From Oscillospiraceae bacterium (GTDB taxonomy: Bacteria > Bacillota > Clostridia > Oscillospirales > Oscillospiraceae), in the NCBI GenBank assembly GCA_024404215.1, contig JAKSQI010000001.1, forward strand, positions 1 through 33,222: a stretch of DNA of 33,222 nucleotides, read 5' to 3'. Below, in pieces: positions 2,362-32,769 of this stretch. Under the pieces are notes generated by a model. That model worked only from the letters and a program-made list of their open reading frames with translations. It searched no databases and was not told the origin of the DNA. The position numbers were made by a program, and so were the translations under genes. Each line of letters starts with the position of its first letter. The stretch's first letter is position 1.

Positions 2362-3863
2362 TTAGGCATCCTTCTCGGAAACCGCTGCACGGATGACAAA
2401 AAGGGCGGCCAAGGTCAATACAATACCAATGGCAAGACTGATGATAACGTTCTGAATGAAGCCGGCGGCAATGTAGGTTATAAAGCTGACGGCTGCAACG
2501 GTGATGGCATAGGGCAGCTGGGTGCTGACATGGTTGAGGTGTTCTACCTGAGCGCCGGCAGATGCCATAATGGTTGTGTCAGAGATGGGGGAGCAGTGGT
2601 CACCGCAGACAGCACCGGCCAGACAGGCAGAAATACCGATGATAAGCAGACTGCTGGATGCCGGGAAAATGGCGGTAACAATGGGAATCAAAATGCCGAA
2701 GGTGCCCCAGGAGGTACCGGAAGCAAAGGCCAGGAAGCAGGCAACCACAAAAATGACGGCAGGCAGCAGCTTGTACAGGCTGCCGGAGGCGCCCAGCATC
2801 AGGTCATGAACAAATTCAGCAGCACCCAGATTACCGGTCATGGTTTTCAGAGAAACGGCCAGGGTCAGAATGATAATCGGGGGAACCATGGCGATAAAGC
2901 CCTTGGGGACGCACTCCATGGCTTCCTTTAAGCTCACAACCCGACGGGCCAAAAGGTAGACGACGGTAATTACCAGAGAAATAATCGCACCCCAGGGCAG
3001 GCCGATAAAGGCGTCTGTGTTGCCGAAGGCACCGATAAAGTCACCGCCGAAGTCCGTGCCGCCCCAGGCATCCACACCAAAGAAGCCGCCTACATAGAGC
3101 ATGCCGATGGTGCAGGAATCAACAAATCAATGACGCGGCCCTTGCTGTTGCCGGTTTCCTGATCGCTGTTATCCAAAGCGCCCAGGTCGCCGTTGAGTCT
3201 GGCATTCATTTCGTGAATGCGCATGGGACCAAAATCAAATTTCATTAGGGCTAAGCCAATGATAAAAACAAAGGTCAGCAGAGAATAGAAGTTGTAAGGA
3301 ATGGCTTTGATAAAGAGCTCTATACCCGAGTATCCGGCATCTAGGTCATTGGCTACCCCGGAAACGGCGGCTGCTCAGCTGGATACCGGGGCACTGATAC
3401 AGAAAGGAGCCGCGGTAGCATCAATGAGATAGGCCAGCTTGGCGCGGGAAATCTTGTGGCTGTCAGTTACCGGACGCATGACGGAGCCTACCGTCAGACA
3501 ATTGAAGTAGTCGTCAATGAAGACCAGAACACCAAGTACAAAGGTAGCCAGCATGGCACCAACCCGGGTCTTGATATGCTTTTCGGCCCAGCGACCAAAG
3601 GCGGCAGAACCGCCGGCAGCATTAACCAGGGCAACAATGATGCCTAACAATACCAGGAAAAGGAAGATACCGGCATTATCCGAAATGGCGGCTACCAAGC
3701 CATCGTTCACCACAGTGTCCAGTGTGGGAACCAGGGCAAAGCCGGCACTGAACAAACCACCGACGATAACACCAATGAAGAGGGAAAGATAGGCTTCCTT
3801 GGTAATCAAAGCCAGAACAATGGCGATGATGGGGGGCACCAAGGCCCAAAAAGTACCGTACAT
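2362..3863 (-). pseudogene. nhaC: Na+/H+ antiporter NhaC-family transporter, disrupted
   Basis: The N-terminal ORF (3375-3863) ends at a TGA, giving ...APVSS(TGA)AAAVSGVAND. The NhaC-like sequence continues in the same frame to about 3105. A frame change, apparently with loss of part of a TM helix (VIDLLIP / CTIGMLYVGGFF), then joins it to the C-terminal ORF (2362-3102). Confidence 0.85.
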
Positions 3864-3875
3864 ACATGTACCTCC

Positions 3876-3910
3876 AAAAAAGAATCGTGAACGCGGAGAC
3901 CGCGTTCACG
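3876..3910 (-). terminator. riboswitch expression-platform terminator
   Basis: On the minus strand, CGTGAACGCGG-TCT-CCGCGTTCACG is followed by ATTCTTTTTT. It sits immediately before the nhaC RBS GGAGG. Confidence 0.8.
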
Positions 3911-3925
3911 ACTGAAAATCTAATA

Positions 3926-4090
3926 CACGACAGCTCTCCGCAATGATGCGACAGTAAACCGAATGTTATCCGGCTTACCAGGCATGTACAGACAGAATTC
4001 TGCACACCCTTCGGCGGTATCCCCTTTGACCCCCTGCGGATTCTGCCGCGCAGGCGGAGGCTACTGATGTCAACCGCACCTCTATCAAAC
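3926..4090 (-). promoter_or_regulatory. lysine riboswitch (L-box) aptamer
   Basis: The minus strand reads GATAGAGGTGCG...AGTAGCC...GGGTCAAAGGGGATACCGCCGAAGGGTG.GCAGA...ACATGCCTGG...ACTGTCGC...GGAGAGCTG. This matches the conserved blocks of the B. subtilis lysC and T. maritima lysine riboswitches as I recall them. Confidence 0.85.
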
Positions 4091-4107
4091 CATATTCACG
4101 TGACCCA

Positions 4108-15826: not shown

Positions 15827-15838
15827 AGAGCAATCCCG

Positions 15839-15874
15839 GAAGGGCTGTGATGGTCACAGCCCTTCTTATTTTTA
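15839..15874 (+). terminator. intrinsic terminator
   Basis: GAAGGGCTGTGA ... TCACAGCCCTTC followed by TTATTTTTA. Confidence 0.8.
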
Positions 15875-15934
15875 ATAAATAGTTGCCAAAGTGTTCATTT
15901 TAATGGTAAAAACAATAAATATGAATGATTGATA

Positions 15935-15963
15935 TTGACGACTGTCAGGCGGCGTGATAGAAT
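15935..15963 (+). promoter_or_regulatory. sigma-A promoter of the cobalamin riboswitch leader
   Basis: TTGACG, a 17-nt spacer, then TAGAAT with TGa (extended -10). Confidence 0.7.
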
Positions 15964-15984
15964 CAGCCAAATTTAATACTTGTT

Positions 15985-16180
15985 TTCAGTGCTTCATTGC
16001 ACCGCTTAGGGCGATGAAGAGAATAGAGAATCATGTGAGAACCATGGACGGGGCCGCCACTGTATGTGCTCCGGGTGTGTGCGTTGACGAAAGTCAGTCA
16101 TTGGCAAATTGCTGAGAAGGCAGCATACATCCGCCGCTTTTGCGAGGAACACGAGTCAGGAGAACTGCTGGGAATTTGAA
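15985..16180 (+). promoter_or_regulatory. cobalamin (B12) riboswitch
   Basis: GAGAATCATGTGAGAACCATGGACGGGGCCGCCACTGTA matches the GGGAA..GGTGAGAATCC..CCCGCCACTGT core. GAGTCAGGAGAACTGC at 16153-16168 matches the B12 box AGTCAGGAGACCTGC. Confidence 0.8.
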
Positions 16181-16234
16181 GGGATTTCTGTGCACGGGAC
16201 GCTGTGCAGGGACTGTTTTTGTTGCAGGAAAACG

Positions 16235-16272
16235 GCTGCGGCACAGGCTTTTGTCTGTGCCGCGGCTTTTTT
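16235..16272 (+). terminator. terminator of the cobalamin riboswitch expression platform
   Basis: GCTGCGGCACAG-N8-CTGTGCCGCGGC followed by TTTTTT. Confidence 0.8.
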
Positions 16273-16362
16273 GTATAAACCGAATTGCTGCCGGAACTGG
16301 TGGCAAGGCTGGTTTTATTACCGATTCTTTGAGAATTCCAGGCCTCTTCCTTGTTGATTTTC

Positions 16363-16407
16363 TATCCCCCCTGGGGGCTTATCAGCGAAAAGAAGAAATG
16401 GTACAAT
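16363..16407 (+). promoter_or_regulatory. C/G-tract palindrome (site 1) abutting a sigma-A promoter
   Basis: TATCCCCCCTGGGGGCTTA (16363-16381) overlaps the -35 TTATCA. A 17-nt spacer leads to TACAAT (16402-16407), which is preceded by TGg. Confidence 0.6.
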
Positions 16408-16471
16408 TCCTCTCAAAGCGATGGGGGTAAAAGCCCGCGCAAAAATTAAATCACATTGTGGCCGACTGAAC

Positions 16472-16533
16472 AACAGCAGGCTTACCTAAAGTATCACCCT
16501 CGGGGGTGGTGTTGGGTAAGCCTGCTGTTTTTT
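16472..16533 (+). terminator. leader terminator (attenuator) upstream of the methyltransferase gene
   Basis: A 15-bp stem, AACAGCAGGCTTACC with GGTAAGCCTGCTGTT, encloses a CACCC/GGGTG inner hairpin. TTTTTT follows. It ends 25 nt before the ATG. Confidence 0.75.
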
Positions 16534-16558
16534 GGTTATCGCGGGATGGAGGAAACAG

Positions 16559-18046
16559 ATGAATCAGCAAGAGCGCGGGGAACGATGGGCTGACGGAAAG
16601 GGCTATGACAGCTACATCCAGGGGGAACTGCATTCCTTCCGTAAGGAAGCATGGAAACAGCAGCTGAGGCAGCATTTGCCTAAAAAGAATCTTCAAATCC
16701 TGGCTGTTGGAACAGGACCGGGCTTTTTCAGCTGCATTCTTTCTGAGCTGGGGTATCGGGCAACCGGCATTGATGCATCGGAAGGCATGTTGGCCTGTGC
16801 CCGTAAGAATGCGGAATGCTTGCAGGTGACACCTGAATTTCTGTTGATGGATGTTAACAGCCTGACCTTTCCGGATGAAAGCTTTGATGTTTTGGTAATG
16901 CGAAATGTAACCTGGACCTTGGAGCATCCGGAAAAGGTATATTCTGAGTTTAAGCGGCTGCTGAAGCCCAGGGGCATGCTGCTGATTTATGATGCCAACT
17001 GGCAGCTGCAGTTTTTTGACCCGGATTTGCGGCAGCGTGTGCTGGCTCGGGAAAAGGCCTATCGGGAAAAGTATGGTCGGGAGGAATTTGTTTCCCGAGG
17101 CGACATGGCTTATTATGCCACCGCCCCTTTGACTCATACCTACCGACCGGACTGGGACCGGGAGGTGCTGACCAATTTGGGCTTTGAGGTTTCCATAGAA
17201 GAGAACATTGGCAGAAGGGTTTATGAGCAGTGGGAAAAGGATTTGTATGCCGAGTCCCCTTTGTTTGAGATATGCGCAGTCAAGAAAGCGGAACCAGAGA
17301 CCCAAACCAACATGCATACCTACTGGCAGAAACGGGCGGAAACCTTTGGTTTTTTCCGCAAGCCGGAGGACGTGGATGCTATGGGGCGGGAGTATGCCCG
17401 TTATTTACCGGAGGGGCCTCTTCAGGTGCTGGATGCCGGTACGGGAACCGGCGTGATAGCTGCGGTTATGGCAAAGCTTGGCCATAAGGTTACTGCTGTT
17501 GACCTGTGTTCCAACATGCTGGAAAAGGCAAAGGAGAATCTGCGCAGTTTGGGACTGCAGGCGGATTTCTACTGCACCTCTGCCGGCGAACTGCCCTTCC
17601 CCGATGAAAGCTTTGATGTCGTTATCTCCCGCAATGTGACCTGGGCCCTGCCGGAGCCGGAGCATGTCATGGAGCAGTGGCGAAGGGTTCTCAAGCCCGG
17701 TGGCCTTTTGATTTATCGGGATGCCAATCACTACAACTACCTCTTTTTTGAAGAGGACCGGCAAAACCGAGAACGTATCATTGAATTGGCAGGCACCCCC
17801 CACGGAGACCATAACGATTCAAAGGAATATGATTATAATCTGTGTGATGAAACCGCCTACAATTTGCCTATGTCTAAGCTGAAACGTCCCGGACAATGGG
17901 ACGATATCATGCTGCCAAAGCTGGGCTTTGATATTTTAGCAGAGGAGCTTCGTTATCCCCAACGTCTGTTGAAATATGGCATAGCTGATGGCTACTATAC
18001 GGATTTTACCATAGTGGCCAGAAAGGCGGAAACAATAGAGGAGTGA
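16559..18046 (+). CDS. fused tandem class I SAM-dependent methyltransferase (two MTase domains)
   Basis: Two SAM-binding motifs, ILAVGTGPGFF and VLDAGTGTGVIA. Each is followed by FPDESFDV(L/V)..RNVTW.L..PE....(F/W).R.LKP.G.L. The ATG at 16559 follows GGAGGAAA. Confidence 0.85.
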   Translation: MNQQERGERWADGKGYDSYIQGELHSFRKEAWKQQLRQHLPKKNLQILAVGTGPGFFSCILSELGYRATGIDASEGMLACARKNAECLQVTPEFLLMDVNSLTFPDESFDVLVMRNVTWTLEHPEKVYSEFKRLLKPRGMLLIYDANWQLQFFDPDLRQRVLAREKAYREKYGREEFVSRGDMAYYATAPLTHTYRPDWDREVLTNLGFEVSIEENIGRRVYEQWEKDLYAESPLFEICAVKKAEPETQTNMHTYWQKRAETFGFFRKPEDVDAMGREYARYLPEGPLQVLDAGTGTGVIAAVMAKLGHKVTAVDLCSNMLEKAKENLRSLGLQADFYCTSAGELPFPDESFDVVISRNVTWALPEPEHVMEQWRRVLKPGGLLIYRDANHYNYLFFEEDRQNRERIIELAGTPHGDHNDSKEYDYNLCDETAYNLPMSKLKRPGQWDDIMLPKLGFDILAEELRYPQRLLKYGIADGYYTDFTIVARKAETIEE

Positions 18047-18050
18047 TGAA

Positions 18051-19031
18051 ATGGGACGCTATATCCTGAAACGGCTGCTGTGGCTGATACCGGTCATGCT
18101 GGTAATCTCCCTGATAGCCTTCCTTTTGATGTATCTGTCACCCGGCGATCCTGCGACGATTTACCTGTCCATGGGTGGTGATTCGCCTTCCGCAGAGGCC
18201 GTGGCAGAGCTGAGGGAAAAGATGGGACTGAATCGGCCTCTGTACGAACAGTTTGGAAGCTGGCTGATAAATCTGCTGCACGGTGATTTGGGAACATCCT
18301 TCTTTACGAAAAACCCGGTTATTGAGGATATTGCAACCCTATTCCCCAACACCCTTAAGCTTACGTTACTGGGCATGCTGGGAACACTGGTGATTTCCAT
18401 ACCCTTGGGCATTCTATCTGCAGTAAAGGCCAATAAGCTGACGGATAACATAATACGTGCCGGGTCCTTTGTTGTCGGTTCCATGCCGGGATTCTTTGCT
18501 GCCCTGCTGCTGATTTATCTTTTGGGTGTCAAGCTCCGTTGGCTTCCCACAATAAGCTCAGGATCCGCCAAGGGCATCATCCTGCCTGCCTTGACCTTAG
18601 CCTTGACAATGGCCCCCAATTATATCCGACAGATTCGAGCTGAGATTGTTAAAGAACTGGGAGAGGATTACATCCGAATGTTCCGGGGCAGAGGTATCAA
18701 AGAACGAATGATTCTTTATAACGGTGCACTGAAAAGTGTTATGCCCTCCATTCTGACCATTGCCGGAATGAACATGGGGCATTTGTTGGGGGGAACTTCC
18801 ATCATTGAAATGGTCTGTACCTACCAGGGGCTGGGGCGCTTGGCGGTAAATTCCATTACCAACCGTGATTATCCCCTGATGCAGGGGTTTGTTCTAATGA
18901 TGGCAGGTATTTATGTCATTATCAATCTGGTGGTGGATATTCTGCACGCCATGGCAGACCCGAGAGTAAAGCTTCGTATTTTGGCGGAGAACGGAGGTGG
19001 CTACCGACATGGAAAAAAGAAGGCGGTTTGA
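18051..19031 (+). CDS. ABC transporter permease (peptide/nickel family, OppB/NikB-like)
   Basis: Typical N-terminus MGRYILKRLLWLIPVMLVIS and LSPGDPA. Contains an EAA-like loop. Confidence 0.9.
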   Translation: MGRYILKRLLWLIPVMLVISLIAFLLMYLSPGDPATIYLSMGGDSPSAEAVAELREKMGLNRPLYEQFGSWLINLLHGDLGTSFFTKNPVIEDIATLFPNTLKLTLLGMLGTLVISIPLGILSAVKANKLTDNIIRAGSFVVGSMPGFFAALLLIYLLGVKLRWLPTISSGSAKGIILPALTLALTMAPNYIRQIRAEIVKELGEDYIRMFRGRGIKERMILYNGALKSVMPSILTIAGMNMGHLLGGTSIIEMVCTYQGLGRLAVNSITNRDYPLMQGFVLMMAGIYVIINLVVDILHAMADPRVKLRILAENGGGYRHGKKKAV

Positions 19032-19842
19032 CCCGGCAGTAGTCCGGCTTTTGGTTTGGTCCGGCATAGTTCTTCTGCTTCTTGTTTTGGCCTGGGTGGG
19101 TCCTCGCTTTATCCACCATGACCCCTATGAGGTTAATCTGCTGCAGATAACGGCGAGGCCTTCGGCAGAGTATCTCATGGGCACAGATTACCTGGGGCGC
19201 TGCACTCTTTGCCGTCTTATTACCGGAGCAGCCCGGTCCATATATGCGTCTTTAGCCGTGGTAGCTATCACTTTTATCATTGGAACAGCCATAGGAACCG
19301 TTTGCGGTTTTATCGGCGGGGCTTTTGATACGGTGGTTATGAGATTTGTAGATGCCGTGCAGGCCTTTCCCAGTCTCGTTTTTACCATTGCCATTGCGGC
19401 CATGCTGGGCAGCGGCATGGGCAACTGTATCATCGCCATGTCCTGTATTAACTGGACCCAATATGCCCGGCTTTCCCGCAGCCAGGTGCTGCAGGTGAAG
19501 GAGCGCACCTTTGTTAAGGCGGCCCGAACCACCGGCATGACCAATCGGCAGATTCTTTTTAAAACCATTTTGCCTAACAGTATGACGCCCCTGATTGTAT
19601 CGGCCAGCATGCATGTTGGAAACACAATCCTGGGTTTTTCCGGCCTAAGCTTTCTGGGGCTTGGTACCATGCCCCCCTTCCCGGAGTGGGGGAATATGCT
19701 CAACGACGGCAAGGCAACCCTGCAGACTGCACCCTGGACCGTTATTTTCCCGGGACTGGCCATTTTGCTTGTTGTCATGATTATGGGTATGTTCGGCGAC
19801 AGCGTGAATGAAGCGCTGAATCCGAAGAAAAATACAAATTAA
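19009..19842 (+). CDS. ABC transporter permease (OppC/NikC-like)
   Basis: Six-TM BPD_transp_1 profile. The ATG at 19009 follows GGAGGTGG. A GTG at 18997 is an alternative start. Confidence 0.88.
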   Translation: MEKRRRFDPAVVRLLVWSGIVLLLLVLAWVGPRFIHHDPYEVNLLQITARPSAEYLMGTDYLGRCTLCRLITGAARSIYASLAVVAITFIIGTAIGTVCGFIGGAFDTVVMRFVDAVQAFPSLVFTIAIAAMLGSGMGNCIIAMSCINWTQYARLSRSQVLQVKERTFVKAARTTGMTNRQILFKTILPNSMTPLIVSASMHVGNTILGFSGLSFLGLGTMPPFPEWGNMLNDGKATLQTAPWTVIFPGLAILLVVMIMGMFGDSVNEALNPKKNTN

Positions 19843-19863
19843 CAAACGAGAAAGGAAATTCAA

Positions 19864-21504
19864 ATGAAAAAAAACATGCTGAAAAAACTGACAGCCCTCA
19901 TGCTGTCCGTGCTGATGCTGCTGGCTCTCTTTGCCTGTGGCAGCAAGCCTGCGGATACTGCAGTGAGCCAAACTCCTGCTTCTTCGGATAATGCGGCGCA
20001 GTCAAGCACCGGAACGGATAATTCTGCAGCCACAGAAGAGAGACACATTGAGTTTACCTTCGGTGCAAACTCTGCCGCTAACAACGCAACGGTATTTACC
20101 TTTGACCCTGCTGTAGATTATAACGCATCAAAAGCAACAGCCATGGGCATGGCAGAGACTCTGTTGGCCTTGGATGCTAACAAGGAGGTTCAGCCAAAGC
20201 TGGCAACTGCTATTGAAAACACGGATGACACGACCTGGGTCTTGACCATTCGTGACGGTGTTACTTTTTCTAATGGGAAAGAACTGACCGCAGAAATGGT
20301 AAAAAAGTCTTTAGAGTATACCCTGTCTGTCAATGAACGCTTGAGCGCATTGGCGGATGTTGCCTCCATGGAGGCTGATGGCCAGACCTTGACCATTCAT
20401 ACCAATGCTGTCGTTGCTATTTTCGACCGCGTTTTGACAGAGCCCAACATGGCTATTTTTGATGTGGAGGGCACCGAGAATCTGGACAAAAATATGATTG
20501 GTACCGGTGCCTATATCCTGACCGATATGGACAGCGAAGGAAACTGCACTTTGACCCGCAACGACAATTACTGGCAGGGTACCCCCATTGCTGAAACCAT
20601 TCACACTAAGGCCAATCTGGATTCAGCAGCCATTACTTTGGCTCTCCAGTCCGGTGAAATTGACTGGTCCACCGGTGTTTCCACCAGTGACCTGGCCTTG
20701 TTTGCCGGCAACCCGGATTATGAGGTTCAAGAATACAATGCTGGTCGAGCCTTCTATCTGTATGTAAACCCCAACTATACCTTTACCATGGATCCTGCCC
20801 TGCGTGAAGCCCTTCAGTATGCCATAGACCGCGATGCCATCATTGCCGGTGTATACAGTGGTTATGGCTTCTCAACCCAGTCCATTTTCCCTGACTATTC
20901 CGAATACTACGACGCATCCTTGCAGCAGGCGGCTTATGATAAGGATAAGGCTGCCCAGATTTTGGCTGATGCCGGTTATGCGGATGCCGATGGCGATGGC
21001 TTCCTGGAAAAGGATGGTCAGAAGGTCACCCTGAATATTCTCTGCTATGCTAAAAACCAGTTTGATACCCTCAGCGAGGTTCTGCAGTCCATTCTCAAGG
21101 GCTATGGCATTGATGCCACCATTCAGGTCAGCGACACCATTAGCGATGATGCCAATGCCGGCGAATTCAATCTGGCTACCTATGGCTACAATACCCTGAC
21201 CCTGGGCGATTGCTACAATTATCTGTATCCTGTGTTCCATTCTCAAGGTACCGCAAACTTTAACGACCTTAACGATGCTGAAATTGACGGCTGGCTGGAT
21301 GAACTGAAGGTTACCAGTGACATGTCCAAACGTGTAGAGCTGGTTAAGAAGATTCAGGAGAAGGTTTATGCATCCAATGAATATATCTATATCATGCATG
21401 TAAAAAACACCATGGTATCCAAGGCCGGCATTGTTAATCTGCCTCCCATGTTTGGCGGTGACCAAATGGATAACTGCGTCCTCTGGACTGTTGACCGCAA
21501 ATGA
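19864..21504 (+). CDS. ABC substrate-binding lipoprotein, family 5 (OppA/NikA-like)
   Basis: Signal peptide with lipobox LALFAC-G. Length of 546 aa and motifs fit SBP_bac_5. Confidence 0.88.
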   Translation: MKKNMLKKLTALMLSVLMLLALFACGSKPADTAVSQTPASSDNAAQSSTGTDNSAATEERHIEFTFGANSAANNATVFTFDPAVDYNASKATAMGMAETLLALDANKEVQPKLATAIENTDDTTWVLTIRDGVTFSNGKELTAEMVKKSLEYTLSVNERLSALADVASMEADGQTLTIHTNAVVAIFDRVLTEPNMAIFDVEGTENLDKNMIGTGAYILTDMDSEGNCTLTRNDNYWQGTPIAETIHTKANLDSAAITLALQSGEIDWSTGVSTSDLALFAGNPDYEVQEYNAGRAFYLYVNPNYTFTMDPALREALQYAIDRDAIIAGVYSGYGFSTQSIFPDYSEYYDASLQQAAYDKDKAAQILADAGYADADGDGFLEKDGQKVTLNILCYAKNQFDTLSEVLQSILKGYGIDATIQVSDTISDDANAGEFNLATYGYNTLTLGDCYNYLYPVFHSQGTANFNDLNDAEIDGWLDELKVTSDMSKRVELVKKIQEKVYASNEYIYIMHVKNTMVSKAGIVNLPPMFGGDQMDNCVLWTVDRK

Positions 21505-22451
21505 GCAGGCTGCTGGATATCAATGGGATTGATGTCAGCTATGGAAACGCCCCCATTCTGAGGGGCGTTTCCATGCACGTCAAGGACGGTGAAATTGTAG
21601 GTGTTGTTGGTGAGTCCGGCAGCGGAAAGAGCACGACTATTTATGCTACCCTGGGTATTTTGGGGAATGGCGGAAAGGTAACAGCCGGCTCCATTCATTA
21701 CGATGGCCGGGATTTGCTCGCCCTTTCACAGGAGGACCTGAGAAAGATGCGGGGCAAGGAAATGTCCCTTGTTGCACAAAACCCTGTGACATCCTTCCAT
21801 CCCATACGAAAAATCAATAAACAGCTGAAGGAACTGGTTGCCTGTCACTCCGGTATGACCTATGCGGAAGCAGAGGAGCATATGTGTGAAATCATGGCAA
21901 AAATGAACTTGAAGGATGGAAAGCGCCTGCTTAACAGCTATGCCTTTGAACTGTCCGGTGGCATGTGCCAGAGGGTATCCATTGCCATGGCTCTGGTGTT
22001 GAGTCCAAAGCTCCTGCTGGCAGATGAGCCCACCAGCGCACTGGATGTTACCGTTCAAAAGCAGGTTGTGGAGGAGATGCGGAAGCTAAGGGATGAGTAT
22101 GGTAACTCCACCCTGATTGTATCCCATAACATGGGGGTTATTTCCTATATCTCTGATCGGGTTTATGTCATGTTTGCCGGCCGGGTTATGGAGTATGGGG
22201 AGAAGGGTGCCGTGATAAAAAGGCCCATGCATCCCTACACCAAAAATTTGATTGCGGCTGTGCCAACCATGGACGCACCCATGCCGACCGGCGTCCGCCC
22301 CACCGGGTTTGACCGGACAGTTCCCGGCTGTGTCTTTTATCAAAGCTGCCCCTGCCGACAGGAAGTCTGCGCCTTGTCAGATCCGGAGCCGGTAGAAACA
22401 GAATCCGGTCATTTTGTCAAATGCCATTGTATTCGGGAGGGAAAGCTATGA
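21501..22451 (+). CDS. ABC transporter ATP-binding protein (OppD/NikD-like)
   Basis: Walker A GESGSGKST, signature LSGGMCQR, Walker B LLLADEPT. ATGA overlap with the binding-protein gene. Confidence 0.92.
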   Translation: MSRLLDINGIDVSYGNAPILRGVSMHVKDGEIVGVVGESGSGKSTTIYATLGILGNGGKVTAGSIHYDGRDLLALSQEDLRKMRGKEMSLVAQNPVTSFHPIRKINKQLKELVACHSGMTYAEAEEHMCEIMAKMNLKDGKRLLNSYAFELSGGMCQRVSIAMALVLSPKLLLADEPTSALDVTVQKQVVEEMRKLRDEYGNSTLIVSHNMGVISYISDRVYVMFAGRVMEYGEKGAVIKRPMHPYTKNLIAAVPTMDAPMPTGVRPTGFDRTVPGCVFYQSCPCRQEVCALSDPEPVETESGHFVKCHCIREGKL

Positions 22452-23203
22452 ATGCCGTTGAAGTGGAAAACCTGAAGGTGAGCTTTTATTCCCATAAAAG
22501 CAACTCCTTTGTCCATGCCGTAGATGACGTTAGCTTTACTCTTGGCGAAAATGAGTTTTTGGGCTTGGTTGGTGAATCCGGCTGCGGAAAAAGCACCATT
22601 GCCCGTATGCTGATGGGGCTGCAGATTCCCGACGGCGGCACCATTCGCATCAAAGGGAAAGAAATCAAGCCCCCCTATCCTCACAACGTGTACAAGCAGA
22701 TTCAGATGATTTATCAAATGCCTCAGGACTCCTTCGACCCCCGCCGGAAGGTGGGGACCTGTATTACTGAAATACAGAGTAATTTCGGCGTAAACAAGAG
22801 GGAGGCCAGAGACTTTACCATGCATCTGCTGACCAGGGTTGGCTTGACGGAGGAGTACTATAATAAGTATCCCCATGAGATGAGCGGTGGAGAATGTCAG
22901 CGGGCGGCCATTGCTCGTTCTCTGTCCTTGAAGCCGGATGTACTGATTTGCGATGAGCCTACCAGTGCCTTGGATGTAAGTGTACAGGCCCAGGTGGTGG
23001 AGCTCCTGGCTCAGCTTCGCAAGGAAATGAAGCTGGGGGTCCTCTTTATTTCCCATGACCTGGCGTTGGTACAAGGTCTCTGCGATTCTGTCATGGTCAT
23101 GTATCAAGGCAAAATTGTGGAACGGGGCAGCGCAAAAGAAATCACCCAAAACCCCCGGGAAGACTATACACGCAAGCTTTTAAGTTCAGTCTTGTTGGTC
23201 TAA
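22448..23203 (+). CDS. ABC transporter ATP-binding protein (OppF/NikE-like)
   Basis: GESGCGKST, MSGGECQR, VLICDEPT. The ATG at 22448 overlaps the upstream stop and follows GGGAGGGAAAG. Confidence 0.92.
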   Translation: MNAVEVENLKVSFYSHKSNSFVHAVDDVSFTLGENEFLGLVGESGCGKSTIARMLMGLQIPDGGTIRIKGKEIKPPYPHNVYKQIQMIYQMPQDSFDPRRKVGTCITEIQSNFGVNKREARDFTMHLLTRVGLTEEYYNKYPHEMSGGECQRAAIARSLSLKPDVLICDEPTSALDVSVQAQVVELLAQLRKEMKLGVLFISHDLALVQGLCDSVMVMYQGKIVERGSAKEITQNPREDYTRKLLSSVLLV

Positions 23204-23244: not shown

Positions 23245-23290
23245 TATCCCCCCTGGGGGCTTAACAAAATCCCGCGATTTGTTGTACTAT
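23245..23290 (+). promoter_or_regulatory. C/G-tract palindrome (site 2) abutting a sigma-A promoter
   Basis: TATCCCCCCTGGGGGCTTA (23245-23263), identical to site 1, then TTAACA, an 18-nt spacer, and TACTAT. Confidence 0.6.
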
Positions 23291-23351
23291 TATCCCAGTA
23301 GCCCTTCCCCCTTTGCCGATGGGGTAGGGAAAATCCGATGAGGTGAACCCT

Positions 23352-23501
23352 ATGGCAGAAAACCGTGAATGGAAACTAACTGAGAAGGAAGAAAAGCTGT
23401 TGGCCATGCTGCGTGAAATTCGATTTGGTGAAGTGGTGATTCATGTGGCGGATGGTCAGCCGGTGCGTGCGGAAGAGGTCCGCAAGAGTATTAAATTCTG
23501 A
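23352..23501 (+). CDS. small DUF2292/YezD-like protein (49 aa), absent from the ORF track
   Basis: MAENREWKLTEKEEKLLAMLREIRFGEVVIHVADGQPVRAEEVRKSIKF. The ..L..I.FG.V.I.V.DG.....E...K pattern is that of the YezD family. GAGGTGA RBS 6 nt upstream. Confidence 0.7.
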   Translation: MAENREWKLTEKEEKLLAMLREIRFGEVVIHVADGQPVRAEEVRKSIKF

Positions 23502-23533: not shown

Positions 23534-23578
23534 TATCCCCCAGGGGGGCTTTAAAGCAAAGCCGACCGGTGTTATACT
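23534..23578 (+). promoter_or_regulatory. C/G-tract palindrome (site 3) abutting a sigma-A promoter
   Basis: TATCCCCCAGGGGGGCTTTA (23534-23553), then TTTAAA, a 17-nt spacer, and TATACT preceded by TGt. Confidence 0.6.
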
Positions 23579-23616
23579 AAGACCGTTAATTCCTCTCATA
23601 ACCTTTCTGGGAAGAG

Positions 23617-23645
23617 CCGCACTCCGGTGAGGGAGTGCGGTTTTT
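23617..23645 (+). terminator. leader terminator (attenuator) upstream of the His-rich gene
   Basis: CCGCACTCC-N6-GGAGTGCGG followed by TTTTT. It lies 65 nt before the ATG. Confidence 0.7.
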
Positions 23646-23709
23646 CATAGGGCTCCGGCAGACTGCCGGGAGAGGGATGGAGTCGAAATAAGAATAAAGG
23701 AGTACCGTT

Positions 23710-24138
23710 ATGCATTTGGAACACGATATTGTGGGCAGCGAGCATGAGCATACGCACACCCACGAGCATACCCACGAGCACACCCATGAAAATGGCGAGA
23801 CCCATCAGCATGCCCATACCCATGAGCATTGTCACAGCCACGGCCATGACCATGAGCATACCCATGACCATGCTCATGACCACGACCACGCCCATGAGCA
23901 TTGCCACGACCACGAGCACAGCCATGATCACGGCCATGGGGAGGCCGATAACCGCCTCTATGCATTGATGAATTACATGGCCGGCCATAATGCCGACCAC
24001 ACCAAGGAATTGGCTGAACTGGCTGTCCAGCTGAAGGACAGCGGCAAGGAATCTGCCTATAACAAGGTAATGGCCGCTGTAGAAGAATTCGGAAAGGGCA
24101 ATGACCTGCTGGCAGAGGCCCTGAAGGAACTGAACTGA
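23710..24138 (+). CDS. histidine-rich (H-x-H repeat) putative metal-binding protein with a C-terminal helical domain
   Basis: By my count there are about 33 His in the first 76 residues, in a near-perfect alternating HxH array (HEHTHTHEHTHEHTH...HDHEHSHDHGHG), plus 2 Cys. An ordinary roughly 60-aa helical tail follows. AAAGGAG RBS. Confidence 0.8.
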   Translation: MHLEHDIVGSEHEHTHTHEHTHEHTHENGETHQHAHTHEHCHSHGHDHEHTHDHAHDHDHAHEHCHDHEHSHDHGHGEADNRLYALMNYMAGHNADHTKELAELAVQLKDSGKESAYNKVMAAVEEFGKGNDLLAEALKELN

Positions 24139-30885: not shown

Positions 30886-30974
30886 GCGCGAGTGGTGGAA
30901 TTGGCAGACTCGCTAGATTCAGGTTCTAGTGTTCATTTACGGACGTGCGGGTTCAAGTCCCGCCTCGCGCACCA
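30886..30974 (+). tRNA. tRNA-Leu (anticodon CAG), CCA encoded
   Basis: Acceptor GCGCGAG/CTCGCGC. Anticodon arm CTAGA-TTCAGGT-TCTAG. Long variable arm. T-arm GCGGG-TTCAAGT-CCCGC. Discriminator A plus CCA. Confidence 0.93.
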
Positions 30975-31224: not shown

Positions 31225-31440
31225 TAAAATCTAAAAACTGGAGTGGGGTGAAAAAAGAGTAGTGGGTGAATATTGACCGTATGGGCAGAGAATGCACTGT
31301 GAGCGAGGATGAGGGCAAGCGTATGACTATCTCTTATGTGTAAGTATTCTTTGGTCTGGTCGTCATTTTCAGTTGAATTCATTAGTTTCGTAGGTGTTTT
31401 GATATATCAAATAATACGAAAACATAGGGAGGGTTTCAAA

Positions 31441-32769
31441 ATGAAGGGATGTTTTGCCAACTTAAATATGAAGAAAAAAGCGACGTATCTTTTTCCGGTT
31501 TTGTTCTTGGCATTACTCTTGCTTATCGCGACTGGGTGCGGGAATGGCGGCGATGACAAGACCGTGGATGTACCGGGATGCTTTTCACGTGAAGATTACA
31601 TTCTCTCAGATACAATTGCCAACGGAACTGCAGATTATGTAAAAATATATTCCGATGTTTATGACCTTTACCCAGATTCAACCACTATTGTTGTCGGTAC
31701 TGTAGAAGATCTTACATATTCCGATGCCGATGGAATTGCCACTACCTACTACGACTTACTTGTTGAGGATTGCTGGGAAGGCAATGTCAAGAAGGGGGAT
31801 AGAATAACTGTTGCCCATAACGGCGGTTTCGTCCGAAATGGAAATACGCTTATTAAGGAAACCATTTACAACACACCGCTCCCGGAAAAAGGTGACTACT
31901 ACTTGTTATTTCTAACGAACTGGTGTTCCGGTACGTACTGTGCCCTAAATACCTTTATGGCTAGATACTATATAAGTAAAGACCAAACTCTTTATCGGTT
32001 TGTTCCAGACGAGCCATACATCAAATCTGAAATGGACCGAGGTGAAGATCCAACCAAATTGGATGAAATGAAGTTATTGGTTCTGCAATTAAGCGAAAGC
32101 TTTCTGAGCAATCAACCGGCTTCATTGGAAGAAAACCTAAATCTGTTGTTGCGGTGGGAACCCTTTTTGGACTCAAATCAAGATTCGCAGTCTTTAACAG
32201 AAGCATATGAGGAGGCCTGCCTAACCTTATTAGAAAAGACCAGACTGGCCGTAAAAAATACAACAGAGAAACCTACCGTCTTAATTTTAAGCGGTGAAAG
32301 TCCGTTTCTGGCAGCAGGCGGTGATACCTTCCAAAATGTAATCATTGAAGAAGCAGGATGCCGAAATGTTATTGAAAATTACAACTGCAAGGGGAACTTT
32401 GTTACGTTAACAGAGAACGACCTGTTACAGCTAAATCCAGATTATATTATTCTGCCAGATACAGCATCGTACCGATTGAGCGATTACCCGCTATTTGAGC
32501 AAATGACCGCCGGTATGAATAATCAAATCATCCGGATTCCCTTTGCCTGCGAGCATGAGTTCTATTCCTTGAATGTCAGCCTCGGCCGAGGTGACTCAGG
32601 GGCGTTTTTGGCTGTGGCCTTTCTCCTAAGCAACATTCACGAGAGTGTCTACAATAGAAACCAGTTCGTAGCTGACGCATATTGTTTTGCAACTGCCTAT
32701 TATGGATATGAAGAAATGTACATTGAAGAAATTGAAGCATATCAGAGACAGTGGGAGGAAACTGCATGA
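31441..32769 (+). CDS. lipoprotein with an unknown N-terminal domain fused to a single BtuF/FhuD-type (Peripla_BP_2) C-terminal lobe
   Basis: GGGAGGG RBS 8 nt before the ATG at 31441. Lipobox LLIATGC. The C-terminal KPTVLILSGESPFLAAGGDTF..VIEEAGCRNV.....G....TENDLLQLNPDYIIL matches the second lobe of class III binding proteins. Confidence 0.75.
   Translation: MKGCFANLNMKKKATYLFPVLFLALLLLIATGCGNGGDDKTVDVPGCFSREDYILSDTIANGTADYVKIYSDVYDLYPDSTTIVVGTVEDLTYSDADGIATTYYDLLVEDCWEGNVKKGDRITVAHNGGFVRNGNTLIKETIYNTPLPEKGDYYLLFLTNWCSGTYCALNTFMARYYISKDQTLYRFVPDEPYIKSEMDRGEDPTKLDEMKLLVLQLSESFLSNQPASLEENLNLLLRWEPFLDSNQDSQSLTEAYEEACLTLLEKTRLAVKNTTEKPTVLILSGESPFLAAGGDTFQNVIIEEAGCRNVIENYNCKGNFVTLTENDLLQLNPDYIILPDTASYRLSDYPLFEQMTAGMNNQIIRIPFACEHEFYSLNVSLGRGDSGAFLAVAFLLSNIHESVYNRNQFVADAYCFATAYYGYEEMYIEEIEAYQRQWEETA

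Follow-up and report, generated by a model that had tools for sequence, protein, structure and literature searches.

An invariant 19-nucleotide element fused to a variable terminator, a candidate third layer of control before a methyltransferase and ABC importer operon of Clostridia

Why should a single operon be preceded by two promoters and two intrinsic terminators arranged in series? The question is raised by positions 15935-16558 of a 33,222-nt stretch of DNA from an Oscillospiraceae bacterium (GenBank assembly GCA_024404215.1, contig JAKSQI010000001.1, forward strand), which was analysed as a whole and is referred to below as the window. This interval lies immediately upstream of a gene for a double class I S-adenosylmethionine (SAM)-methyltransferase and carries, in order, a promoter (P1), a cobalamin riboswitch closed by a terminator (T1), an operator palindrome with a second promoter (P2), and a second leader that ends in another terminator (T2). 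The original prediction had described this stacked arrangement, and all of the sequence features that it listed were found where it had placed them, the methyltransferase ATG beginning at 16559 rather than 16560. It had further proposed that P2 offers a way round the B12 signal and that the second leader is an attenuator with an effector of its own. Using sequence comparison and thermodynamic folding, which form the evidence base throughout, we found that the conserved part of the second leader is confined to 19 invariant nucleotides joined to a terminator of variable sequence, a module that may act as a factor-dependent attenuator.

The 19-nucleotide element and terminator T2

The transcript expected from P2 begins with a lineage-specific part (16414-16461, + strand), in which a small hairpin (16418-16440) is followed by an A/U-rich linker, and within which no convincing open reading frame (ORF) and no cross-lineage conservation were found. 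It leads into the 19-mer CCGACTGAACAACAGCAGG (16462-16480, + strand), which is identical in six independent lineages and is present as one copy in the window, where the chance expectation is 0.01. The terminator T2 was located on the + strand by folding, with a stem at 16472-16529 and a run of six T residues at 16528-16533, which ends 25 nt upstream of the methyltransferase ATG. Over 16462-16533 its predicted energy was -41.9 kcal/mol, and over 16462-16536 it came to -46 kcal/mol (z = -7.6); the hairpins of T1 and T2 each beat all 200 shuffled sequences by far, in agreement with the earlier claim of a second strong terminator before the operon.

The loci used for comparison, which carry L-numbers, were contigs fetched via homologues of the methyltransferase and of DUF2292, a small protein. 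In L089, a DUF2292 gene lies between the operator-promoter and a MatE/methyltransferase/ATP-binding cassette (ABC) cluster, and is followed by CCGACTGAACAACAGCAGG, a hairpin and a T-run. Other contigs with DUF2292 homologues added four further independent lineages with an identical 19-mer, so that the six lineages are the window, L089, L098-L107, L108/L109, L111 and L112-L116. In the five lineages other than the window, the 19-mer begins 7-45 nt past the stop codon of the DUF2292 gene, and the module stands 16-58 nt ahead of the start of a Peripla_BP_2/FecCD/ABC transporter, a MatE exporter or a double methyltransferase. Across the six lineages the mean pairwise nucleotide identity was 1.00 for the 19-mer, 0.30 for the 20 nt upstream of it and 0.28 for the 20 nt downstream, and the DUF2292 ORFs had a mean nucleotide identity of 0.62, with a longest invariant run of 3 nt. 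Each lineage has a terminator hairpin of -24 to -42 kcal/mol followed by a T-run, the stem of which varies in sequence and keeps its pairing: over positions 20-28 of the 5' arm, 51 of 54 cells are paired, and each position shows three to four types of pair. The base of the stem uses the 19-mer from nt 11, 15 or 17 on, according to the lineage, and at least nt 1-10 were left unpaired in five of the six predicted folds, L111 having a weak 3-bp helix there.

No further 19-mer with four or fewer mismatches was found in the fetched loci beyond these six lineages. A scan of viral contigs with a 17-mer gave 7 matches, which is about the number expected by chance, none of them with a hairpin or a T-run. 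Plasmid and phage collections contained nothing relevant for the 19-mer, a viral scan for relatives of DUF2292 found none, and the literature yielded no publication containing the 19-mer. In L110 (3151-3215), a DUF2292 homologue within a CbiQ/ABC-DUF2292-SLH/DUF4430 cluster is directly followed by CTGACCGGAAAACCGGAGG and a terminator. With 13 of 19 positions shared with the 19-mer and a small hairpin of its own (CCGG-AAAA-CCGG), this sequence may represent a divergent form of the module, the setting being once more one of cobalt/corrinoid genes. As a separate observation, L098-L105 and L107 carry a radical SAM/SPASM gene and a small zinc-ribbon gene (HypA-like, faintly) divergent from the DUF2292 operator-promoter, at a distance of some 300-1400 nt upstream of the DUF2292 gene, with a phage terminase gene about 2.4 kb off.

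Taken by itself, the 19-mer folds as ((..(((.....)))..)), with C1 paired to G19, C2 to G18, C5 to G15, U6 to A14 and G7 to C13. The same hairpin, with AACAA as its pentaloop, was chosen by RNAalifold, and the ends of the invariant block match the ends of the hairpin exactly. Its folding energy was -3.3 kcal/mol (z = -3.4), a value equalled by 3 of 200 shuffled sequences. The 3' half of the 19-mer is also the 5' base of the T2 stem in all six lineages, and the 19-mer hairpin and the terminator fold are therefore predicted to exclude each other in every one of them. No recurrent complement of at least 9 nt to the 19-mer was found in any locus, and the energies of its duplexes with start regions were those of the background, except with the terminator's own 3' arm. 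Since no complement is encoded in cis, any partner of the 19-mer must act in trans.

The second leader matched no family of Rfam 15, and the earlier remark that it is unlike known classes such as NiCo, SAM, T-box and lysine was thereby borne out: a search of 15850-16650 up to E = 10 returned only the cobalamin family and noise, and five homologous loci gave no match for the module up to E = 1. Within Rfam 15 and the searchable literature, the 19-mer and terminator module belongs to no described RNA family. No alternative structure was predicted between the T2 module and the upstream leader. The view of the second leader as an attenuator can be retained insofar as the terminator T2 is present, but it does not apply to 16410-16535 as a whole, only 16462-16533 being conserved.

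Other candidates for this segment were rejected. A 22-codon ORF at 16421-16489, considered as a leader peptide, ends inside the 5' arm of T2 and has neither a Shine-Dalgarno sequence nor a counterpart in the other lineages. The tip of T2 (TATCACCCTCGGGGGTGGTG, 16491-16510) was considered as a second operator, but a similar sequence occurs in L089 only (CCCCCGGGAGGG, about 660-685), the T2-tip region of the other four lineages having no resemblance to a C/G-tract operator, and the likeness is probably due to chance in G+C-rich stems. The reverse complement of the 19-mer (minus strand, 16462-16480) reads CCUGCUGUUGUUCAGUCGG, which we take to be like the 5' acceptor/D-arm part of tRNA-Asp-like tRNAs (..GUAGUUCAGUCGG..); ARAGORN found no tRNA or tRNA fragment on the minus strand at this position.

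The riboswitch, the operator-promoter and a candidate repressor

The interval opens with P1 (15935-15963, + strand), which was recognised in a consensus scan as TTGACG-17-TAGAAT with a TG-extended -10 element and 10 of 12 consensus matches. It sits 3' of the hairpin (15838-15866) that terminates an upstream gene for an Fe-S protein and forms the left border of the interval, and it ends 7 nt before the aptamer of a cobalamin (adenosylcobalamin, AdoCbl) riboswitch (15970-16186, + strand). The aptamer matched Rfam RF00174 over model positions 1-189 of 189, with 69.4 bits against a gathering threshold of 31.5 (E = 2.4e-15), and its B12 box, GAGUCAGGAGAACUGCUG at about 16154-16171, aligns with the RF00174 consensus AGCCAGGAGACCuGCC. 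The expression platform (16185-16272, + strand) consists of a hairpin (16185-16212), an antiterminator pairing and T1, a terminator on the + strand with a 15-bp stem at 16234-16267 and a T6 run to 16272 (-32.5 kcal/mol, z = -6.9). Folding indicated that the upstream segment 16202-16219 is able to pair with the 5' arm of T1 (16229-16246). By its sequence architecture this first unit fits an ordinary transcriptional OFF riboswitch, and the promoter, the B12 aptamer and the strong closing terminator that had been read from the sequence were each upheld.

Among 20 other loci with the methyltransferase/ABC cluster or the T2 module, the Rfam scan found a cobalamin riboswitch in L010 only, and among the loci scanned the riboswitch unit abutting the operator-promoter is particular to the lineage of the window. 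In L010 (2048-3953) the riboswitch (109.7 bits) precedes a gene for a 398-aa CbiK-type cobalt chelatase, which lies directly upstream of an operator-promoter, a split, two-gene double methyltransferase and a Nik-type ABC transporter. A cobalamin riboswitch is thus found near the cluster in L010 as well, and the cobalt/corrinoid link recurs. B12 riboswitches have been predicted before NikABCDE-type transporters with predicted cobalt import, those of Clostridium tetani and of Desulfitobacterium hafniense (PMC2667541), and the likeness lies in a cobalamin riboswitch upstream of a peptide/nickel-family ABC importer in Clostridia (PMC2667541). The window differs from these in having a fused double methyltransferase gene first, and two more layers of control.

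The operator palindrome TATCCCCCCTGGGGGCTTAT (16363-16382, assigned to neither strand) contains a C6-T-G5 tract and overlaps the -35 element of P2; it is found again at 23245-23264 and 23534-23553. P2 (16379-16407, + strand) was recognised in the consensus scan as TTATCA-17-TACAAT with a TG-extended -10 element, its start being inferred near 16414. By itself the promoter scan was not significant, with 3 sites found and 1.7 expected. The operator-promoter occurs, however, in about 30 copies in related Clostridia loci, where the sites follow the pattern (T)AT-C4-6-N1-2-G4-6-CTT, with the -10 hexamer 18-22 nt past CTT in nearly all of them, and precede homologous methyltransferases, MatE exporters, Peripla_BP_2/FecCD transporters, DUF2292 genes and histidine-rich proteins. 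Because the same module is footprinted in some 30 related promoters, P2 is taken to be a real promoter, and the second promoter with its palindrome, as originally described, is confirmed. In our reading it is the ancestral promoter of the methyltransferase/ABC gene cluster.

On the same comparison the palindrome marks a whole regulon, which in the window comprises the methyltransferase/ABC operon, a DUF2292 gene and a gene for a histidine-rich protein. The second operator-promoter (23245-23290) is followed by the DUF2292 gene (23352-23501, 49 aa; PF10055, 28.5 bits with a cutoff of 22), the whole unit occupying 23245-23501 on the + strand. There is no 19-mer or terminator after this gene, and the next operator-promoter lies about 30 nt past its stop codon. 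This third unit (23534-24138, + strand) consists of the operator-promoter (23534-23579), a leader with a terminator-like hairpin (23611-23646, -29 kcal/mol) and a histidine-rich ORF of 142 aa (23710-24138), for which there was no match to a Pfam or NCBIfam family. At permissive thresholds, neither of these two operator leaders matched Rfam. A homologous histidine-rich gene stands behind the same operator in L026, with a leader that has no terminator. A leader terminator is absent at about 21 of the 30 operator-promoters, and L084 and L090, which of the methyltransferase loci with upstream sequence are the nearest (63% identity), have an operator-promoter and a short leader with no hairpin. Directly upstream of its DUF2292 operator-promoter, L089 carries an extra unit (186-345), in which another operator-promoter precedes some 110 nt of structured RNA that end in a terminator, GAGCCCCCG...CGGGGGCTTTT; the product may be a small RNA under repressor control, or a transcript that serves as a decoy.

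Sites of the CsoR/RcnR family (DUF156, PF02583) are of a type with G/C tracts and T/A-rich flanks (PMC5016687), and the site in the window, TAT-C6-T-G5-CTTAT, fits this description and overlaps a promoter at the -35 element of P2. In L082, the intergenic region that separates the cluster from a divergent PF02583 gene contains two operator sites, and the product of this gene has an InrS-like His/Cys pattern as read from the sequence; L073 has one PF02583 gene plus two operator sites, so that PF02583 genes occur near the sites in two related loci. Most likely, the palindrome is bound by a CsoR/RcnR-family repressor encoded elsewhere in the genome. There are differences from the family nonetheless, as the regulon consists here of importers, a MatE exporter, methyltransferases, DUF2292 and a histidine-rich protein rather than efflux or detoxification genes, and the right flank of the window operator, CTTGT, doubles as the -35 element and is not the mirror of the left flank. 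The regulon with this operator is undescribed, and belongs to uncultured Clostridia.

Three layers of control and competing explanations

In the mechanism that we propose, P1 would transcribe the AdoCbl OFF riboswitch, where T1 would form when B12 is bound and where, without B12, the antiterminator would let the polymerase read on. P2 would be subject, through the C/G-tract palindrome, to a CsoR/RcnR-family repressor supplied from elsewhere in the genome, which, when bound to the operator, could also block polymerases arriving from P1. Transcripts of either promoter would then meet T2, at which termination would be the default. A conserved trans-acting factor would recognise the 19-mer and hold the small hairpin, or simply sequester the 19-mer, and nt 13-19 would in this way be withdrawn from the base of the terminator stem, allowing read-through into the operon. 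Since T2 lies downstream of both promoters, it would gate polymerases that escape T1 and those that start at P2 alike. The idea that P2 bypasses the B12 signal is accordingly right in one respect, P2 being downstream of T1, but P2 is no simple bypass, as T2 gates read-through from P1 as well as starts at P2. In this scheme the repressor with its effector, and the sign of each input, are putative.

We consider the chances about even that the T2 module is a factor-dependent attenuator, in which the hairpin of the 19-mer, with the DUF2292 protein as its possible binding partner, would compete with the terminator base. That T2 is conditional we infer from its position, since the genes that follow the module in five lineages lie too close to it to have their own promoter and must depend on read-through, which makes the module an attenuator by position. 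A hairpin as weak as that of the 19-mer would need a trans-acting factor to win over the terminator, and recognition of a specific sequence would account for the invariance of unpaired as well as paired positions. On circumstantial grounds, the likeliest candidate for the factor would be the DUF2292 protein: the module comes straight after its gene in five of the six lineages, and the DUF2292 gene of the window is part of the regulon that the palindrome marks. In its most far-reaching form, this proposal would make DUF2292 a new kind of RNA-binding antiterminator of the invariant hairpin, and the module an undescribed protein-RNA attenuation system of nickel/cobalt/corrinoid transporters in gut and rumen Clostridia; we regard this form as tentative and rather unlikely. 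Equally tentative is its extension, in which the system is wired in series with the B12 riboswitch and the CsoR/RcnR-type operator to give a control region with three inputs.

Several points count against the proposed scheme. Just six lineages were recovered, all of them as metagenome contigs, and T2 termination, read-through and factor binding are predictions from comparison and folding. The 19-mer hairpin, being invariant, has no support from covariation, and it is weak at -3.3 kcal/mol. The 3' 12 nt of the 19-mer make up four A-R-N triplets beside a terminator and a U-tail, so that by sequence a trans-acting RNA role fits equally well. With regard to DUF2292, the gene in the window lies 7 kb from the module, and no function of DUF2292/YezD, a widespread family in which the close subfamily counts more than 700 proteins, was found in the literature. 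Its AlphaFold model was poor, with a predicted local distance difference test (pLDDT) score of 62 from 12 sequences, and with 104 sequences the best model reached 75 and the other four 60-64. In the PDB, neither Foldseek (nothing below E = 9) nor a search by sequence revealed a match. As regards the repressor, tblastn found no PF02583 gene in the 33-kb window, and effector binding causes derepression in all characterised members of the DUF156 family, an odd fit for an uptake regulon.

The A-R-N triplets lead to an explanation that we think rather unlikely and that is the main rival, namely that the 19-mer and terminator are the functional 3' end of a small regulatory RNA acting in trans, with read-through into the operon as leakage. 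Such an RNA would be of about 120 nt and made from P2 in the window, and elsewhere derived from the 3' untranslated region (3'-UTR) of the DUF2292 mRNA, with the 19-mer as its seed or as an Hfq-binding (A-R-N)4 tract. An A-R-N tract by a terminator and U-tail is a signature of Hfq-binding small RNAs, and AAC-AAC-AGC-AGG, as read from the sequence, fits the repeat next to a terminator and U6; more generally, a conserved and mostly single-stranded tract followed by a variable terminator and a U-tail would suit such an RNA. T2 is moreover predicted to be so extremely strong that most P2 transcripts would end there, and the module in the window stands without an upstream ORF. However, all six modules lie 16-58 nt before co-oriented, mostly promoterless genes, which an attenuator leads one to expect and a small RNA does not need, and a search of the window and of the other loci showed no target complementary to the 19-mer near a start codon. 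An invariance of 19/19 with edges that match a hairpin also exceeds what a seed normally needs. The same identity bears on the quite unlikely case that T2 is an unregulated partial terminator, or an RNA-processing or stability element, which sets a fixed ratio of the proximal product to the transporters, the 19-mer being kept as an RNase site or for a reason at the DNA level. Intercistronic terminators that fix expression ratios are common, and the short, terminator-free leaders at about 21 of the 30 operator-promoters imply that the regulon generally needs no attenuator. Against this, 19/19 identity remains unexplained where the neighbouring coding DNA is 62% identical, and a dimeric DNA site would not track a terminator found at about 48 to 250 nt from the promoter.

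That the P2 leader (16410-16535) is a new metabolite- or metal-sensing riboswitch controlling T2, as the original prediction had implied, is very improbable. A terminator in a 5' leader without coding potential, the metal/B12 context and the want of a match to any known class would all suit a riboswitch, but conservation begins sharply at 16462, the preceding 48 nt or so being unrelated between lineages, and the 7-45 nt that separate the 19-mer from the preceding ORF in five lineages leave no room for an aptamer. Nor is a switch to an alternative structure with the upstream leader predicted. A second leader that senses a ligand by itself was thus not upheld, because the conserved part before the terminator amounts to 19 nt and includes no aptamer-sized domain. 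We also give hardly any weight to the arrangement being an evolutionary scar, in which the DUF2292 gene was lost between P2 and the module and the riboswitch became juxtaposed, leaving one or more of the layers as relics. It is true that the window is the sole lineage of the six without DUF2292 before the module and the sole one with a riboswitch in front, and that its DUF2292 gene is found 7 kb away with an operator-promoter of its own. All parts are nevertheless intact: the riboswitch is full-length and has a good promoter and platform, the operator and the terminator are perfect, and the 19-mer is exact. A remnant of a deleted DUF2292 gene at 16408-16461 was looked for by alignment with six DUF2292 loci, genes and UTRs alike, and rejected, as 56% of shuffled sequences reached the best alignment score.

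Setting, related systems and meaning

The methyltransferase gene (16559-18046, + strand, 495 aa; Pfam) is preceded by the Shine-Dalgarno sequence GGAGGAA (16549-16555) and is the first gene of an operon with a peptide/nickel-family ABC importer. This importer, of the Nik/Opp type according to Pfam (18051-23203, + strand), consists of two permeases (18051-19031 and 18997-19842), a family 5 binding protein (19864-21504) and two ATPases (21501-22451 and 22421-23203), all of them on the + strand and assigned by Pfam. Its top NCBIfam matches were nickel and nickel/cobalt systems, of which the Opp2B permease scored 350 bits (cutoff 350) and the Opp1B, NikB/NikC permease and Opp5A_nikA binding-protein matches were below the cutoff. 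Homologues of the methyltransferase with 53-67% identity are many in Clostridia metagenomes, the names Lachnospiraceae and Oscillospiraceae borne by homologues suggest an uncultured clostridial host for the window, and a metagenome scan with the methyltransferase gave two loci, one with a usable upstream region.

Elsewhere in the window, a lysine riboswitch (3923-4092, minus strand, 80.6 bits) lies ahead of ORFs 3375-3863 and 2362-3102. The match of the latter, on the minus strand, to a Na+/H+ antiporter (NhaC-type) family is confined to the C-terminal two thirds of that family, and 2362-4092 may represent a split or frameshifted transporter gene under riboswitch control. The sole tRNA of the window, tRNA-Leu (anticodon CAG, 30886-30974), lies upstream of a 477-aa ORF (31336-32769) with a weak Peripla_BP_2 match.

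Two intrinsic terminators in series, one of them governed by AdoCbl and both having to open, are also the arrangement of the tandem SAM-I/AdoCbl riboswitches upstream of metE in Bacillus clausii and others (PMC9481103). In contrast to the metE tandem, the second terminator of the window has a 19-nt conserved sequence and no aptamer, a repressor-controlled promoter lies between the gates so that the first gate acts on P1 transcripts only, and the second input would presumably come from a protein or RNA factor rather than from a metabolite bound by RNA. In the hut operon of Bacillus subtilis, the product of the first gene, HutP, binds the 5' side of an intercistronic terminator RNA and prevents termination (PMC2425495), and the order of promoter, small first gene, intercistronic intrinsic terminator and structural genes is similar (PMC2425495). 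DUF2292, however, has 49 aa and no detectable relation to HutP, and the terminator of the window is not linked to the small gene; the 19-mer has no spaced UAG/NAG triplets, and no HutP family was among the Pfam matches of the window ORFs.

The ribonucleic antiterminator (RAT) hairpins bound by the BglG/SacY/LicT proteins (reviewed in PMC12591593) are comparable in being short and imperfect, in having a 3' half that lies over the 5' base of a terminator, and in being too weak without protein (PMC12591593). They are unlike the present element in sequence and length (about 29 nt, as against 19 nt) and are associated with sugar phosphotransferase system genes rather than metal/corrinoid genes, and no CAT/PRD-domain protein was found among the window ORFs scanned. 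ANTAR targets have two tandem hexaloop stem-loops with A1/G4, of which the second lies over the terminator, whereas here there is one small pentaloop hairpin. The module is also reminiscent of Hfq-binding small RNAs and 3'-UTR-derived RNAs, in that a conserved A/C-rich tract stands 5' of a terminator and U-tail, at an mRNA 3' end in five lineages; it is set apart from them by the co-oriented genes that always follow closely, and no target complementarity was found. By analogy, we propose that the module functions like the RAT, HutP and ANTAR systems, though it is probably a member of none of them.

Nineteen invariant bases fused to a freely varying terminator make a sharply bounded non-coding element outside Rfam 15, which travels with the DUF2292 family and with the C5-N-G5-operator regulon in uncultured Clostridia. 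If this element is a factor-dependent attenuator, the DUF2292 family would gain a testable function, and the module would be a new example of antitermination mediated by protein or RNA. The methyltransferase and Nik-type ABC cluster which it precedes in the window appears, from the evidence above, to be tied to the cobalt or corrinoid economy of the cell. The window would thus illustrate how a B12 riboswitch has been added before an existing repressor-controlled promoter and attenuator, in a natural three-layer design that may integrate cofactor status with a metal-related signal.

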